Source: an uncultured Gammaproteobacteria bacterium (GTDB lineage: Bacteria > Patescibacteriota > Patescibacteriia > CAZGFX01). Taken from it: 64,000 nt of DNA. The notes under the pieces are model-generated. The model searched no databases. It was given only the letters and a program-made list of their open reading frames with translations, and was not told the DNA's origin. Position numbers and translations under genes: made by a program. The DNA lies in contig CAZGFX010000002.1 in NCBI GenBank assembly GCA_964524845.1, forward strand, positions 85,389 through 149,388, read 5' to 3'. Shown one piece after another: positions 48,823-61,439 of the stretch (the first letter of the stretch is position 1; each line of letters begins with the position of its first letter).

Positions 48823-49046
48823 CATTGTAACCTCGACACCATATTGTCACCCCGAACGAAGTGAGGGGTTGTCACCTCGACCCGCCTCGTCACCTCGAAC
48901 TAAGTGAGGGGCCTCACCAACACTGTCACCTAGACACCACATTGTCATCCTTAACTGACATTGTCATCCTTAACCCACATTGTCATCCTTAACTGACACT
49001 GTCATCCTTAACTGACACTGTCATCCTGAACTTGTTTCAGGATCTT
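48823..49046. repeat. degenerate tandem array of about 10 short units, core TTGTCAYCYYGAAC, ending in a palindromic hairpin
   Basis: Read directly: units such as ATTGTCACCCCGAACGAAGTGAGGGG, TTGTCACCTCGAC, and 4 near-identical ACTGTCATCCTTAACTGAC copies (48939-49016), then ATCCTGAA-CTTGT-TTCAGGAT. Confidence 0.75.
49017..49045. repeat. left 29-bp inverted repeat flanking the GIY-YIG gene
   Basis: ACTGTCATCCTGAACTTGTTTCAGGATCT; exact reverse complement of 49402-49430. Confidence 0.85.
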
Positions 49047-49059
49047 CCATGATACATTG

Positions 49060-49335
49060 TCATAATAACAAATCTTTGAGTTCCGGATTATACTCTTTTA
49101 TCAAATTCCATTTCCACTTTCTGTGCCAACGTTTTAATTGCTTTTCTCTTTCTAGTGCATCATATATGGACTCGTATTCTTCTGTGAACACTAATTTCGT
49201 CAAATGATATCTACGCGTAAACACGCCTCCTTTCTTGTTTCTATGAAACATCACACGACGAATAATATCGTTAGTGACACCAATATATAAGGTTGTGTTG
49301 GTATAATTTGTTAAGATATAAACGTAGTAAGACAT
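49060..49335 (-). CDS. GIY-YIG nuclease family protein (small, UPF0213-like)
   Basis: 91 aa; YVYILTN...LYIGVTNDIIRRVMFH...GG.FTRRY...E.EKQLKRW pattern of the GIY-YIG fold. Confidence 0.8.
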   Translation of the reverse strand: MSYYVYILTNYTNTTLYIGVTNDIIRRVMFHRNKKGGVFTRRYHLTKLVFTEEYESIYDALEREKQLKRWHRKWKWNLIKEYNPELKDLLL

Positions 49336-49401
49336 AATATATCTATATCACTTGTCTTTTAGAAACTAAAGCGCCGTCTGTGAATTACTTAGTTACACGG
49401 T

Positions 49402-49430
49402 AGATCCTGAAACAAGTTCAGGATGACAGT
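49402..49430. repeat. right 29-bp inverted repeat flanking the GIY-YIG gene
   Basis: AGATCCTGAAACAAGTTCAGGATGACAGT; exact reverse complement of 49017-49045. Confidence 0.85.
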
Positions 49431-49525: not shown

Positions 49526-52500
49526 TTAGTACGTAGTAACAGCACCGAGAACAGGCAACGACGGTGAGAATGTAGAATTAACAGTTGTTGAGTTGTCGAA
49601 CGCTGAGATATACGAGTAAGGAACAGGGCCTGCGGTTGCAGGGAATGGGCCAGCTGAACCCTCGAGACGACTAGAAAGCGTCACATTAGATTGAACCGGA
49701 GCTGGTGCATTAGCACCATCCATCTTGATGTTTGAGGTGTTAGCATAGAGTCTGAACTCTTTTGAATTACCCTGAGTAATCGTAATTGCTGATGTAAGCG
49801 CGAACTGTACCGTCTGAGAAGAGACAGTAGCAGTAAGTGTAGCTGGGATCGCCACATCACTTGAATCCTTAAGAACGTAACCGGTAACTTTACAATTTGT
49901 GATTGTAACACCGCTACACGCTGGTACGATATCACCATCGAACGAAGAGAAAGGACCGTTTGAACCGGAGATAGTAAATGTGATTTGAGTCATAGTGAGA
50001 TCTCTTCCACCATCAGCCTTAATGCTGTATTTGCCAATCATTTGATTAGCCTGTGGAGCTAGTGTCGTATTTGACATTGTGCTTGTCATAACAGCAACAA
50101 CATCATCGGCTCTGTGTACTCTTATCGCATGCTTAGCATTTGTATAGAGAGCACCAGCTGTTCCAGCTGCGTTTTCTGTCATGTTAATAACATAAACACC
50201 TGCCGTACCATAAGCCGTATCTCCAATTGTTGGAGCTGTTGTAAGAGTTGATAATGCGGCACCGATTGCAACGCCTGCTGCATTTGTAACAACAGCGAAG
50301 CCTGTGGATGCGGTTCCTACAGTATCAGCTACGAACACTAGGTCACCTGGTTCATAAACTACTTCAGCATTTGTGCTTGTATTATCAGCAAGACCCAGTC
50401 TTGAGATTCTATAAGCACTTGACCACGTAGTTGTACCAGCAGCGCTGTTGAAAATAACAGTACCACCGTTAAAATCAGCTACGTTTGTTGTAATGCCATA
50501 CGCTGGATATGTAACACCAGCAGTAGCACCTGTAGAATAGATGAACTGGCCACTAACAGAAGATTGTGTTCCGTTTGGCAAGAATGTATCAGCTGCAGTA
50601 AGAGTACCTGCAACTTCCTGCGACAAGTTTGATACGAGACCGACTGAGTCGATGTCGAATATAACAGGCGCGATCAGTTGAGTAGCAGCTGCATTTGTAG
50701 CAAGAGCTTGAATAGCAGCGGCATCAGCCTTTACAGTCAATACTTTTGAGCTTCCCTTCTCAACTGAAACAGTTAAACCAGAGAAGCTTGCTTCGTATCG
50801 AGCTGAAGTGCTGTTGTACTGCAATGGCTGTTCGCCAATCTTCGTAGCGCCATCATAGAGATATACTCTTGTGATGTTCTTATCGAAGTTGAGGCCTCCC
50901 ATGACAATCTTACTGATCTTCGCACCTTCAACTAGGTTGGAAGTGAATTTGAAGTCAGCGAGGTTTGCCATAGTCTGGCTTGCAACGATGATAGACGAAG
51001 ACACTGCGGATGTCGGATCATACGAGAAGCTTAGTAAGCCACCCGTCGTTGACATCGTCATGATCTGAAGATCGGTTGCAGCTGCAGTCAAAGACTTGTT
51101 TGATGGTACTGCGACACCAGTAGCTGCTGCCGTAAGCCTCAATGAAGCATTATCAGAAACACCAGATGAAGCAATAGAACCAACAACCCGAATTTGAACA
51201 GATGCATTTGCAGCTAGGTTCAATTCTCCAGAAACAGAGAATGTTGGTGAGCTAGCCGGAGTCGACTGTGTATCACCAATCTTGACCCATGCTGAACCTG
51301 ACCACTTGTAAAGCATAACGTTGGAAATTTTGTTTCCAGCAAATGCATTTGTATTCGCGCCAGTTGGGAATGTATTTCCAGCTGTTCGTGTACCAATGGT
51401 AAAGTTCGAAACATTTGCACCCTCAGCAGCAGCCGTTGAAAGAACGAACTGTGCTAGAGGAGCGGCTGTAGAACCGGTAACGATAGTAGTGCTTGGCAAT
51501 GAGTTATCAATAGCAATATTCATTGAAGAATCTTCTACTGACAATGTGTTTGCTGGAACACCAGATGTATGAAGACTAACACCCGCTCCTACAGAAGTAC
51601 TACCATTTGTTTGGTTAAGATTGCTTGAAAGAAGTTTAACTTCCCATCCATTCAAAACACCCTTAATCTGACTATTTATAGGGAAGTGAGTAGAATCGGA
51701 AGATTCGCTCTTCAATTGAGCAACTAATTTAACCTGTTTTGTCTGGCCGGCAGGAATCGTGAGATAAGGAGACAATGTGTACTTAACAACATAATATGTA
51801 TTTGCGGCAATAGATCCTTTCGGAACATTTACGTTTGATACAGAAGATGCTATTGAGTTATTGTTTCCATCCCATAGACCAGCTGTGTCAAGATTTCTGT
51901 TTGTACCAGCTGTTCCATCGGTTGCGTAACCAACATAGATTACACGAACCTCTGTGTCTTCACCAGCAGCAACAAAATCATATACACCTATCGTTTGGTT
52001 TGAACCTGCAGCCACCTTATTTGAAGGAGACGATGGAGATAAACCTAATGACTGTGTACCCTGATTAATGTTGTGTAATGAGATATTATCTGATGAGGAA
52101 GTAATTTTATCACCAATTGGGAAAGTTGTGTCATTGCTTGTATCAACTTTAGGCAAGAAACTTACGCCGGTCTCAAGACCACGAAGCGTTATGTCTTCTG
52201 CTTGTTCTACAACAAGTTGAAGTGTTCTGCTTGTCCCACCAATAACATCAGCTTTTACAGTCAATGTTACGGTATTGCCTTCTGCCATTGACAATCCGGT
52301 CGTCGTAATGACAGCCTGATTGTTTACATTAAGCGACGAAACAGAACCAATAAGAGCACCGGTTGATTCGTTATATACTTTTATATTCTGTATATCAGAT
52401 GCAGTTGCAGTACCTCTGTTTGTAAGAACGATTCGATCTATTGCAATCTGCTCGTTAGTTACTTCAAAGATTTTGAACTGCGCAATAACTTCTCCTGTGT

Positions 52501-53716
52501 CGCCAACATCAAGATTCTGAGAATAATTTCCTACAGAACCGATGCGGGCACTTCCAAGTAAGGTGCTACCATCAATAATAGACATTTCATTGCCTCTTAT
52601 TGGAAATGTTCCACGAACAGTACCACCAGAAATAGTGATGCCTGTAGCAGACTCAATTCCGAGCGCAATTGTACCATTATTATTACCTGCCTCTACAATG
52701 TCAGCAGCTAGATAAACAGTAGTTGTCTGACCGGCAGTCAATGCGATAGGATCGCTTGTGAAGTTAATAGTTGCATAACCATTATACAAGCTTACCGTAC
52801 CACCATGACGGTTGTTGTTTGAATCAAGAATTTTGACACCTTCAAGTATATTATCACTTGATACGCCATATCTCTTGATTGTAACTCCAGTCAAGTTTAC
52901 CGCAGTGCTTGCGCCGTTGGTAACGTTGATTGCAGTCATTTTAAAGTTACCAGCTCCATCAGGTACAGTCATAGAAGCTGGAGTGCTTGAAGCCAATGAG
53001 AATGTGATATCTCCTGAAATAACTGGAGAACCACCACCTGTTGGATAATCCAACAAAGTAGTCTCAAGGCCTGTGATAGAAGTACCGATATTGAATGCAG
53101 ATACTGCGCCAGCAGTAACTTCATGTACAAACTCGTTTCTGAACATGTTTGCAGTGAATGCAGACTCAGAAGCGAATGGGCGGCGTTTGCTACCCTCAAT
53201 ATAGTACTTAGTACCATCTACTTTTATCAATTGACCGGTTGGGAACTGGTTCACCGTAGAAATTGCGGTGCCGGTATGATAAGTAGCGGCGAATGTATTC
53301 GGATTAATATCTTTGATCCACTGATTCCAGTTTGATCCGAATAATGAAGCTGCGATTGTTTCAGAGCCGACGTGGCGAATTGAAGCGCCATTCTCGACTG
53401 CATAGGTCTCGGAAAAATCCGGAACCTTAACCATCCAAGTACCAGAGCGAACGCCCATAGTACCAGCTAGATGGAATGCAGCGAAGTCAGCATCAGAAAC
53501 AGTCTGCACAGCATCGAAATTTTCATATCGAGAAAAGAACTCGACTTGTGAAGGGAAAGTGTACAAACCATTGTTTCCGCCTACGAAATATACGGTCGTT
53601 GAAGATGCTTTCTTAACGAGAGCTCCTTCATTGTAAGTAGCTGCTGCTACATCTGTGTAGATGAGAAGCGATGCCACTACCGTGAACAAGGCAAAAACTT
53701 TTCTGAATTTACTCAT
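49526..53716 (-). CDS. large secreted Thr/Ser/Ala/Gly-rich surface protein (putative S-layer or adhesin-like)
   Basis: 1396 aa; signal peptide MSKFRKVFALFTVVASLLIYTDVAAA; N-terminal pair of about 85-aa repeats, then long low-complexity region; no LPXTG. Gene is much more GC-rich than surroundings. Confidence 0.7.
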   Translation of the reverse strand: MSKFRKVFALFTVVASLLIYTDVAAATYNEGALVKKASSTTVYFVGGNNGLYTFPSQVEFFSRYENFDAVQTVSDADFAAFHLAGTMGVRSGTWMVKVPDFSETYAVENGASIRHVGSETIAASLFGSNWNQWIKDINPNTFAATYHTGTAISTVNQFPTGQLIKVDGTKYYIEGSKRRPFASESAFTANMFRNEFVHEVTAGAVSAFNIGTSITGLETTLLDYPTGGGSPVISGDITFSLASSTPASMTVPDGAGNFKMTAINVTNGASTAVNLTGVTIKRYGVSSDNILEGVKILDSNNNRHGGTVSLYNGYATINFTSDPIALTAGQTTTVYLAADIVEAGNNNGTIALGIESATGITISGGTVRGTFPIRGNEMSIIDGSTLLGSARIGSVGNYSQNLDVGDTGEVIAQFKIFEVTNEQIAIDRIVLTNRGTATASDIQNIKVYNESTGALIGSVSSLNVNNQAVITTTGLSMAEGNTVTLTVKADVIGGTSRTLQLVVEQAEDITLRGLETGVSFLPKVDTSNDTTFPIGDKITSSSDNISLHNINQGTQSLGLSPSSPSNKVAAGSNQTIGVYDFVAAGEDTEVRVIYVGYATDGTAGTNRNLDTAGLWDGNNNSIASSVSNVNVPKGSIAANTYYVVKYTLSPYLTIPAGQTKQVKLVAQLKSESSDSTHFPINSQIKGVLNGWEVKLLSSNLNQTNGSTSVGAGVSLHTSGVPANTLSVEDSSMNIAIDNSLPSTTIVTGSTAAPLAQFVLSTAAAEGANVSNFTIGTRTAGNTFPTGANTNAFAGNKISNVMLYKWSGSAWVKIGDTQSTPASSPTFSVSGELNLAANASVQIRVVGSIASSGVSDNASLRLTAAATGVAVPSNKSLTAAATDLQIMTMSTTGGLLSFSYDPTSAVSSSIIVASQTMANLADFKFTSNLVEGAKISKIVMGGLNFDKNITRVYLYDGATKIGEQPLQYNSTSARYEASFSGLTVSVEKGSSKVLTVKADAAAIQALATNAAATQLIAPVIFDIDSVGLVSNLSQEVAGTLTAADTFLPNGTQSSVSGQFIYSTGATAGVTYPAYGITTNVADFNGGTVIFNSAAGTTTWSSAYRISRLGLADNTSTNAEVVYEPGDLVFVADTVGTASTGFAVVTNAAGVAIGAALSTLTTAPTIGDTAYGTAGVYVINMTENAAGTAGALYTNAKHAIRVHRADDVVAVMTSTMSNTTLAPQANQMIGKYSIKADGGRDLTMTQITFTISGSNGPFSSFDGDIVPACSGVTITNCKVTGYVLKDSSDVAIPATLTATVSSQTVQFALTSAITITQGNSKEFRLYANTSNIKMDGANAPAPVQSNVTLSSRLEGSAGPFPATAGPVPYSYISAFDNSTTVNSTFSPSLPVLGAVTTY

Positions 53717-60449: not shown

Positions 60450-60683
60450 TCACTCTATAGAATAAGTATATTCACCGCTTTTTAAAAACTGGTGATATTG
60501 ATCAAATATTCGCTGTCCGGCATCAAGTTTTCCAACATCAAGGGCGTCTTCTCTAGTAAAAAAATCAAGTGTACTCTGAACCTCTTCTGTTTGTTCTCCG
60601 TCTTTGGAAATAATAAGCGTATATCCGACTTTCTTACTGTCTTCTATTTTTCGTTCGATTACTTTTATTGTTATATGAGGCAT
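60450..60683 (-). CDS. hypothetical small protein
   Basis: 77 aa, non-repetitive charged sequence between two tRNA genes; no recognisable motif. Confidence 0.4.
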   Translation of the reverse strand: MPHITIKVIERKIEDSKKVGYTLIISKDGEQTEEVQSTLDFFTREDALDVGKLDAGQRIFDQYHQFLKSGEYTYSIE

Positions 60684-60760
60684 ACATAAAGAATAATAAT
60701 AGGAAATCGCTTGAAAAGCAAGGAATAATGTTATATGATATGCCTGTTTTTATACACAAT

Positions 60761-60835
60761 GGTCCCATCGTCTAAGGGCTAGGACACTACCCTCTCACGG
60801 TAGTAATCGGGGTTCGAATCCCCGTGGGATCACCA
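60761..60835 (+). tRNA. tRNA-Glu (anticodon CUC), CCA encoded
   Basis: GGTCCCATCGTCTAAGGGCTAGGACACTACCCTCTCACGGTAGTAATCGGGGTTCGAATCCCCGTGGGATCACCA; clover-leaf checks out by hand; very similar to canonical bacterial tRNA-Glu except the anticodon. Confidence 0.85.
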
Positions 60836-60839
60836 TTCG

Positions 60840-60916
60840 ATCGTCGCTTCGCTCCTCACTCATGGCGGGGCCATTCTTTCTATATAATCGTCGCTTCGCT
60901 CCTCACTCATGGCGGG
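60840..60916. repeat. two perfect 30-bp direct repeats 47 bp apart, just 3' of tRNA-Glu
   Basis: ATCGTCGCTTCGCTCCTCACTCATGGCGGG at 60840-60869 and 60887-60916; region is much more GC-rich than flanks. Confidence 0.8.
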
Positions 60917-60988
60917 TCACGTCGCTTGCGAGTAACGTGACGGGGCCACTCGGTCAACCCCCGCAAAGCGGGATCCCGCCTTGCGGGA

Positions 60989-61022
60989 ATTGTCACCTCG
61001 AATCTGCATTGTCACCTCGAAC
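60989..61022. repeat. two tandem ATTGTCACCTCGAA units, same family as the 48823-49046 array
   Basis: ATTGTCACCTCGAATCTGC / ATTGTCACCTCGAACGAAAGTG followed by hairpin CCTGAC-GCAT-GTCAGG (61032-61047), echoing the hairpin at 49022-49042. Confidence 0.7.
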
Positions 61023-61190
61023 GAAAGTGCCTGTCCTGACGCATGTCAGGAAGAGGTCTCGCCCACTACACGTCGCTTTGCTCATCATCAACCGTAACCA
61101 TTTTCACAATCGCATTTTTATAGGTGCGGTTTTTTGTTTCTAAATAAAAAACTCTCTTCTTTTTTATAGATAGAGAGTTTGAATTATTAT

Positions 61191-61439
61191 TCACATTAAG
61201 TCTTGATTGTCCCGCGCACCATATTTCTCATAATTATTGTCGCACCTTGTACAATGAGCACCGAATTTATCAATTCCGGTTCCTTTACAACGATGACACA
61301 AGCGAGGATGATCCGAATTTATTCCCATACAAAGAACACAAGAAAAACCTCCATAGGAACCTGTTCCATGACAAGCATTACATTTTCCATCTCCTCTGGG
61401 AACAATCGTATTAAATCTTTTATACTCGTTTTCGCTCAT
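61191..61439 (-). CDS. small cysteine-rich protein with DnaJ-type CxxCxGxG zinc-finger repeats
   Basis: 82 aa; CNACHGTG, CVLCMG, CHRCKGTG, CTRC; strong promoter and AAGGAG RBS upstream. Confidence 0.6.
   Translation of the reverse strand: MSENEYKRFNTIVPRGDGKCNACHGTGSYGGFSCVLCMGINSDHPRLCHRCKGTGIDKFGAHCTRCDNNYEKYGARDNQDLM

Follow-up and report, generated by a model that had tools for sequence, protein, structure and literature searches.

INTRODUCTION

The Ssn family comprises single-domain GIY-YIG enzymes of ~94 aa that cut single-stranded DNA (ssDNA) beside hairpin repeats (Chenal et al., Nat Commun 2025, PMC11893778). The Ssn-associated repeats are called NTS in Neisseria, where the sequence is CGTCATTCCCGCGMAVGCGGGAATCYRG, and SRM in general, for which the published motif is HGTCWYN(0-2)YYVSBRHN(0-5)WNVSBRGN(0-2)RNCYNB (PMC11893778). 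SRMs flank most ssn genes and are found both dispersed and clustered in the genome, with NTS clusters lying near surface-protein genes in Neisseria (PMC11893778). The characterized Ssn enzymes showed limited cross-specificity, in vitro cleavage was obtained with split NTS oligonucleotides (hairpin halves), and the SRMs were likened by the authors to repetitive extragenic palindromic (REP) and bacterial interspersed mosaic elements (BIMEs) and their transposases (PMC11893778). The present analysis concerns a 305-nt segment directly 3' of a tRNA-Glu gene, at 60836-61140 of a 64-kb stretch of contig CAZGFX010000002.1; this whole stretch is called the window below, and all coordinates refer to it. 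The segment is probably a BIME-like mosaic of Ssn-related hairpin repeats (SRMs), which lies between tRNA-Glu and its terminator and which has as its partner a 91-aa GIY-YIG nuclease encoded by an ssnA-like gene 11.5 kb away, called ssnA here.

RESULTS

Repeats shared by the tRNA-Glu segment and the ssnA locus

Immediately after tRNA-Glu the base composition shifts, as a preliminary description of the window had reported. The GC content was 0.58 over 60836-61065 (58%, versus a background of 35%) and 0.54 over 60836-61140, compared with a window mean of 0.35 ± 0.06 in 120-nt windows, and the peak of 0.62 inside the segment was the maximum of the whole 64 kb. Only two noncoding GC islands were present in the window, namely, the array beside ssnA and the post-tRNA-Glu segment, and the repeat family was likewise seen at two loci. 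The ATTGTCACCTCGAA unit, searched for with ≤2 mismatches, was restricted to two places in the window, namely, the segment and 48824-48899 beside ssnA, and this bears out the earlier proposal that the segment shares a repeat family with the GIY-YIG locus. The occurrences of the ATTGTCACCTCGA box (≤2 mismatches) were confined to the same ssnA-side array (48824-48899) and the segment, and the GTCACCTCGA box was shared by the segment exclusively with the array next to ssnA. The best shared block, ATTGTCACCTCGAACGAA versus ATTGTCACCCCGAACGAA, was identical at 17 of 18 positions and lay on the same strand. When random pieces of the window were compared by BLAST, short AT-rich matches were common, and the mismatch-limited pattern search was the better test.

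The ssnA gene (49060-49335, - strand) encodes a 91-aa single-domain protein, classified from its Pfam match and flanking repeats as a putative Ssn-like GIY-YIG nuclease. The Pfam GIY-YIG domain covered residues 3-76 (E value, 3e-15) and was the sole domain, the closest solved structures were single-domain UPF0213 proteins, and no NCBIfam model matched the protein. Two inverted repeats of 35 nt, with 94% complementarity, enclose the gene: an SRM at its 3' side, CTGTCATCCTGAACTTGTTTCAGGATC (49017-49051, + strand), and an inverted copy at its 5' side (49396-49430, - strand), each of which is the hairpin CTGTCAT-CCTGAA-CTTGT-TTCAGG-ATC. In size, in domain content, and in having inverted hairpins on both sides, the gene fits the Ssn family, and gene and hairpins together are, on sequence grounds, an Ssn/SRM module; this match explains most of what the segment shows.

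Beside ssnA lies an array of GTCAYC-box half-sites (48824-49016, + strand), which consists of GTCACCTCGA and GTCACCCCGAACGAAGTGAGGGG units and a 19-nt tandem of ACATTGTCATCCTTAACTG in 4.9 copies. The units of the tandem (48939-49032) combine the GTCAT box with only the first of the two stem halves, hence the term half-sites, and the tandem passes directly into the full hairpin adjoining ssnA. On the other side, the module is adjoined by the gene for a 1396-aa Ala/Thr/Ser/Gly-rich protein (49526-53716, - strand), which lies in a stretch of raised GC content (0.39-0.46), has no recorded Pfam match, and is probably a surface protein.

Homologs of ssnA were compared at seven loci (L143 to L149). 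At these loci, the hairpin ATGTCAT(C/G)CTGAACTTGTTTCAG(G/C)ATCT lies 20-40 nt upstream of the start codon, and an inverted copy of this 25-nt hairpin overlaps or comes after the stop codon; in many homologs, the C-terminal tails (DPETSSG, MLKQVQHD, and DAEINSA) are the translated flanking hairpin. One homolog locus showed a compensatory C<->G change in the stem of the flanking hairpin. The SRM-ssnA-SRM arrangement was found in five homolog contexts: aminotransferase/prfA, a CBS-domain gene, recA-recX, rpsP, and thyA-folA. Close relatives of ssnA were not found in IMG/VR. At positions 48824-49430 of the window and in L143 to L149, SRM-ssnA-SRM forms a compact unit, ~400 nt long and sharply bounded by TGTCAT...ATGACA, that occurs in five unrelated contexts in other genomes, and a target-site duplication was not obvious. 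The module looks like a small mobile element.

Repeat units within the segment

The preliminary description of the segment as noncoding and repeat dense held, and the two perfect 30-bp direct repeats (60840-60869 and 60887-60916), the two ATTGTCACCTCGAA units, the GC hairpins, and the CCTGAC-GCAT-GTCAGG hairpin that it had listed were all found where it had placed them. Read as a mosaic, the segment would hold at least four unit types in both orientations. The left half of the trailer lies on the - strand, and the right half lies on the + strand.

The first type would consist of two identical 30-nt units and two degenerate relatives around a GAGCGAAGCGACG-type core. The two 30-nt direct repeats (both on the - strand) read GCCAT-GA-GTGAGGAGCGAAGCGACG-AT on the minus strand, contain the 18-nt core CGTCGCTTCGCTCCTCAC, and lack a significant hairpin of their own; they are spaced 47 nt start to start, with a 17-nt spacer, and the first begins 4 nt past the CCA end of the tRNA. 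That they are perfectly identical suggests that the duplication was recent. A third, degenerate copy of the core, CACGTCGCTTTGCTCATCA, lies at 61069-61087 (- strand; 17-nt core match, 61071-61087), and the 17-nt core had three matches versus 0.05 expected by chance. The other relative is a GTCAC-box unit, GTCACGT..ACGTGAC (60917-60942, - strand), whose loop, of the CGCTTGCG/GCAAGCGACG type, is akin to the repeat core and whose fold is not significant (z score, -1.1). Two other arrangements of the 30-nt repeats were considered and set aside: a GCCAT/ATGGC stem enclosing each repeat (copy 1 via the ACCA end of the tRNA), to which DNA folding gave no support, and a CRISPR-like mini-array, in which two repeats would be separated by a 17-nt spacer (versus about 26-40 nt) and for which Rfam found no CRISPR family.

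The second type would be an inverted, gene-less pair of NTS-like CCCGC hairpins. One of these SRMs, GGTCAA-CCCCCGC-AAA-GCGGG-ATCCCG (60952-60978, + strand), departs from the published motif at two positions of the box, and the other, inverted one, GGTGACA-ATTCCCGC-AAG-GCGGGATCCCG (60969-60997, - strand), has a central GGATCC in common with it. Because of this shared GGATCC, the pair resembles the ends of SRM-ssnA-SRM without a gene between them. The CCCGC hairpins (60955-60992), CCCGCAAAGCGGG at 60960-60972 and CCCGCCTTGCGGG at 60975-60987, form a 19-25-nt palindromic pair, for which folding as ssDNA gave -13.8 kcal/mol (z score, -4.3).

The third type would comprise two GTCACCTCGAA boxes identical to those arrayed beside ssnA. 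These box/half-site copies, both on the + strand, are ATTGTCACCTCGAA at 60989-61002 and ATTGTCACCTCGAACGAA at 61008-61025 (the ATTGTCACCTCGAA part being 61008-61021), the latter being the copy that is 17/18 identical to 48843-48860. The fourth type would be a degenerate copy of the ssnA-flanking hairpin: the CCTGTC-CTGAC-GCAT-GTCAG-GAAG hairpin at 61030-61053 (+ strand), whose resemblance to the one by the GIY-YIG gene had been remarked on earlier, proved to be a degenerate version of the ssnA-flanking SRM TGTCATCCTGAAC..TTCAGGATC. Folded as ssDNA, its CCTGAC-GCAT-GTCAGG hairpin (61035-61050) gave -8.3 kcal/mol (z score, -3.9).

Scans with a relaxed SRM motif also picked out the segment. With ≤2 mismatches, 4 of the 37 matches in the 64 kb fell within the 305-nt segment, at three sites: 60952-60978 (+), 60969-60995/7 (-), and 61010-61038 (+). 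With ≤3 mismatches, there were 12 matches in the segment, compared with 3.9 ± 1.9 in 100 shuffles, none of which reached 12. A loose scan for GTCAY plus any 5-bp hairpin gave 70 matches scattered over the window and was too noisy to use. The combination of a 20-50-nt hairpin-forming inverted repeat, an oriented GTCAT-type box upstream, and a downstream ATC was complete in 60952-60978 and partial in 60969-60997 and 61030-53; the 30-nt direct repeats had no significant stem, and the GTCACCTCGAA boxes were boxes only.

Gene-less repeat clusters in other genomes

At least 118 GTDB genome stretches contained an exact copy of the 18-nt core of the 30-nt repeat; ~17 chance matches to an 18-mer would be expected (rough estimate from a collection of 596 billion bases, counted on both strands, and 4^18 possible 18-mers). 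In 40 loci among the matches listed, the core forms the loop of GATTGCyy-core-AATGAC[AG]; read in reverse complement, this is GTCATT + loop + GCAATC, which has the general SRM form. The hosts of the GTCATT-loop-GCAATC units belong to many phyla and include Chryseobacterium, Campylobacteraceae, Alphaproteobacteria, Magasanikiibacteriota, and others. The segment keeps this core intact between degenerate flanking stems. One CGTCGCTTCGCT-type unit stands directly after the 3' SRM of the ssnA homolog in L145. Parts of the segment other than the 18-mer had no match to the 118 listed 18-mer loci.

The exact 25-mer GTCATCCTGAACTTGTTTCAGGATC was present in 22 viral contigs of IMG/VR (L150 to L171) with GC contents from 0.28 to 0.71, and a GIY-YIG gene was absent from the fetched stretches of all 22. 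Two of these contigs, L165 and L155, carry gene-less inverted SRM pairs 38-40 nt apart, L164 carries three tandem mosaics in which two SRM flavors alternate, and L152 carries two different SRM flavors head to head. To judge from these contigs, gene-less SRM clusters of mixed orientation are normal for this repeat family, and the tRNA-Glu trailer is a mosaic of the same kind.

Several groups of 18-mer loci had features of their own. In several haloarchaea (L031, 1495-1597; L055, 541-641; and also L008, L071, and L098), the 18-mer lies directly 3' of a tRNA gene on the tRNA sense strand. In Bradyrhizobium and related Hyphomicrobiales, it is contained, sometimes twice in one locus (L099), in a longer conserved repeat, ..CTCTACTCGTCGCTTCGCTCCTCACCGAGCCACCCTACGGGTGTCTCGGCCCTTCGGG.. 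(L005, L006, L019, L024, L034, L059, L064, L066, L072, L073, L080, L081, L094, L095, L099, L106, and L116). The RtT units in L012 (5685-6466) and L022 (4339-4777) contain the 18-mer in the form GTGAGGAGCGAAGCGACG, the reverse complement of the repeat core.

The tRNA-Glu transcription unit

The tRNA-Glu(CTC) gene (60761-60835, + strand; 58 bits) is intact, with the CCA encoded. Upstream of it, a consensus scan placed a sigma-70-like promoter, TTGAAA-17-TATGAT (60711-60739, + strand), and the transcription unit is closed by an intrinsic-terminator-like hairpin with a T-run (61108-61140, + strand; z score, -3.3), which is the first good terminator 3' of tRNA-Glu; a small hairpin, ATGGC-GGG-GCCAT, followed by a T-rich run (60862-60874, + strand) is weakly terminator-like. 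Since the promoter-like site and the terminator-like hairpin bracket both the tRNA and the segment, the segment is placed inside the tRNA-Glu transcription unit, and the hairpin-repeat cluster is therefore likely cotranscribed with tRNA-Glu as a hairpin-rich 3' trailer. Directly past the terminator comes another hairpin, AAACTCTCT..AGAGAGTTT (61142-61185), which has a T-run on either side and probably terminates the convergent gene for an 82-aa protein (61191-61439, - strand).

The same bracketing by promoter and terminator, together with the several strong hairpins in the segment, could be taken to mean that the segment serves as a structured noncoding RNA or as a functional trailer at the tRNA-Glu 3' end; 3' maturation of the tRNA would then set free a stable RNA rich in hairpins. 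RtT RNA would be a precedent, and it holds the same 18-mer, on the opposite strand relative to the tRNA. This explanation is nevertheless unlikely. Rfam returned only the tRNA, both at the gathering score and at E ≤ 10, with RtT included in the search, and the RNA fold of the + strand was marginal (z score, -1.9) compared with that of the antisense strand (-3.05), better antisense folding being expected of DNA palindromes. Moreover, the units are common to the ssnA array, which does not look transcribed, and to gene-less clusters elsewhere. A 25-mer from the 3' half of tRNA-Glu was used to search JGI metagenomes and gave 21 loci, none of them orthologous; 20 metagenome tRNA-Glu genes with an identical 3' half and a readable downstream sequence, likewise none orthologous, were without such a trailer.

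Junctions, neighboring genes, and the open reading frame

The position of the segment directly 3' of a tRNA could also reflect site-specific integration or excision there, with an att remnant of a lost island as the scar, or the decay of a second SRM-ssnA-SRM that has lost its gene, and the 60952-60997 pair does resemble two element ends with nothing between them. A single close relative was found (RlmH, 83% identical; JGI 3300075153, a 1765-bp contig), and its gene order matches up to this point and then diverges: RlmH and a 77-aa gene are kept and are followed by a 59-aa antisense open reading frame (ORF) and then by a HigB-like toxin. The toxin stands in place of the 82-aa Cys-rich protein, and the 59-aa ORF spans the expected 3' part of tRNA-Glu and its flank, ending at a point that coincides with the antisense-frame stop of tRNA-Glu in this window. 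On this evidence, the sequence that follows the tRNA in the relative would be free of stop codons for 140 nt or more and is probably GC-rich, and synteny would be lost a short way past it. When the antisense-frame pseudoprotein was used as a query, no candidates were found. Both the scar and the decayed element are nevertheless improbable, because the direct repeats carry no tRNA sequence, no integrase or recombinase was present among the neighboring ORFs or Pfam-annotated neighbors, and tblastn detected no GIY-YIG remnant in the window outside 49060-49335. In addition, heterogeneous unit types in both directions are left unexplained by a single integration event.

An assembly artifact or chimeric join was also considered, and short-read graph assemblies do break at the 30-nt repeat: in the Logan assembly of SRR12133403, contigs 177 and 103 (the end of L001, at 6553, and the start of L002) end exactly at the 30-nt repeat copies. 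Since the graph breaks at both copies, repeats of this length appear to fragment assemblies of this organism, and the copy number and the 17-nt spacer rest on one assembly. The Logan assembly is independent, however, and in it the junctions from the tRNA to repeat 1 and from repeat 2 to the downstream gene were identical base for base. The sequence of the segment is real, and an artifact is very improbable.

A 93-aa ORF with an ATG start, 60862-61143 (+ strand), runs through the segment. That it is a real protein-coding gene has next to no probability: it matched no Pfam family and had no genuine homolog, its frame crosses direct and inverted DNA repeats and the terminator, and it is much richer in GC than the genes of the window. 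A HMMER search of 1.84 billion representative proteins gave one match, which was to a 1106-aa pseudoprotein of 18 tandem repeats. The ORF is an artifact of the GC-rich repeats, as had been suspected when the window was first described.

DISCUSSION

Assignment of the segment and points that weigh against it

Taken as a whole, the initial interpretation of the segment stood in part. Its noncoding, repeat-dense character, the family shared with the GIY-YIG locus, and the artifactual ORF were corroborated. Its appeal to tRNA 3' ends as integration sites was not, given repeats without tRNA 3' sequence, no integrase nearby, and no second GIY-YIG remnant by tblastn, and its suggestion of a dedicated structured noncoding RNA gained no support other than from position, with no Rfam match at the gathering score or at E ≤ 10 and a + strand fold (z score, -1.9) weaker than that of the - strand.

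The following results weigh against a mosaic of SRMs served by this SsnA. First, the strict published SRM regular expression gave no match in the whole window, the ssnA-flanking hairpins included. The motif misses these hairpins because their stem is AT-richer, and it underdetects the ssnA-flanking flavor. Second, the stems in the segment (CCCGC and CTGAC) differ from the ssnA-flanking stem (CCTGAA); given the limited cross-specificity of Ssn enzymes, this SsnA may not act on the hairpins of the segment. Third, the 30-nt repeats, folded as ssDNA, did so no better than shuffled sequences and formed no significant hairpin. Fourth, the link between these repeats and SRMs consists of the identical 18-mer and one adjacent example (L145). 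Fifth, a GIY-YIG gene was found within 8 kb at 0 of the 118 18-mer loci among the matches listed.

Proposed mechanism and mobility

With the 91-aa GIY-YIG nuclease (49060-49335) as the presumed partner protein, what we infer about nuclease activity and specificity, mode of spread, and any host function takes the following form. By analogy with characterized enzymes, SsnA would bind the GTCAY box and hairpin in DNA that becomes single stranded during replication or DNA uptake or in transcription bubbles, and it would nick just upstream. On the model of REP elements and BIMEs, the copies probably multiply and accumulate in tolerant intergenic DNA by way of such single-strand events or by recombination and slippage from copy to copy. 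The cluster itself makes no protein and is probably also transcribed as a hairpin-rich 3' trailer.

A further proposal, which we regard as possible but rather doubtful, would make SRM-ssnA-SRM a mobile element that is autonomous and encodes the ~90-aa GIY-YIG single-strand nuclease and no other protein, and it would make the trailer a landing site of its gene-less derivatives. The sharp ends of the module, its five operon contexts, the 25-mer in contigs of 28-71% GC, and the gene-less inverted pairs are consistent with such a reading. If it is true, the nuclease would represent a transposase class outside current insertion sequence classifications, and inverted SRM pairs, half-site boxes, and stem-less cores would be accumulated nonautonomous derivatives. 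In a bolder variant of this proposal, half-site arrays would pair in trans with complementary halves and so direct SsnA cleavage, as split NTS oligonucleotides did in vitro.

Implications

The pairing of repeat and nuclease was already described in 2025 (PMC11893778), and the segment would be a further example of it. On this assignment, a hairpin-repeat cluster associated with a nuclease would account for both the unusual GC-rich island and the spurious ORF call, and the Ssn/SRM pairing would reach an uncultivated, low-GC bacterium that is poorly sampled. A widespread SRM flavor, GTCATCCTGAAC..TTCAGGATC, escapes the published search motif. The presence of the module in recA-recX, thyA-folA, and other contexts, the inverted pairs, and the 25-mers found across genomes bear on whether Ssn elements are mobile. 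For annotation, such segments are better masked as repeats than called as genes.

Comparison with known systems

Four described systems resemble the locus to various extents. Like RtT RNA (Rfam RF00391), which trails tRNA-Tyr in Enterobacteriaceae, the segment consists of repeats directly downstream of a tRNA and inside its transcription unit. Unlike in RtT, the 18-mer has the opposite strand orientation with respect to the tRNA, and the units are without a copy of the tRNA 3' end; the RtT covariance model had no match at E ≤ 10 in 60600-61300. Like miniature inverted-repeat transposable elements (MITEs), such as the Correia elements of Neisseria, the units are small, nonautonomous, intergenic, and inverted, MITEs being often cotranscribed, and 60952-60997 would correspond to ends without cargo. 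The differences from Correia elements are that a target-site duplication is not visible, that the ends are hairpins instead of simple terminal inverted repeats, and that the partner would be a 91-aa nuclease.

The resemblance to REP elements and BIMEs with their RAYT (REP-associated tyrosine transposase) proteins, which are of the IS200/IS605-like Y1 type, lies in short extragenic palindromes, mosaics of alternating orientation, an associated gene flanked by the repeats, and a presumed action on single-stranded hairpins. In contrast to REP/RAYT, the enzyme is a putative GIY-YIG nuclease instead of an HUH/Y1 transposase, and the repeats are unrelated to enterobacterial REPs.

Compared with the Ssn/SRM system, the cognate hairpin here is AT-richer (CCTGAA stem) and fails the published motif, and the segment differs in mixing SRM flavors, in containing stem-less half-site boxes and nonhairpin 30-nt units, and in its location in a tRNA transcription unit. 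Unlike the characterized Ssn enzymes, the present one is a predicted nuclease, and its host is an uncultivated low-GC bacterium; Patescibacteria, the label of one homolog, are unmentioned in the main text of the Ssn paper (PMC11893778). The likenesses to SsnA with NTS/dRS3 in Neisseria meningitidis are a ~90-aa GIY-YIG gene between inverted repeats made up of a GTCAT box, a stem-loop, and ATC, additional gene-less copies, and intergenic repeat clusters, and the segment hairpin ATTCCCGC-AAG-GCGGGAT is close to the NTS/dRS3 core ATTCCCGCG-MAV-GCGGGAAT.

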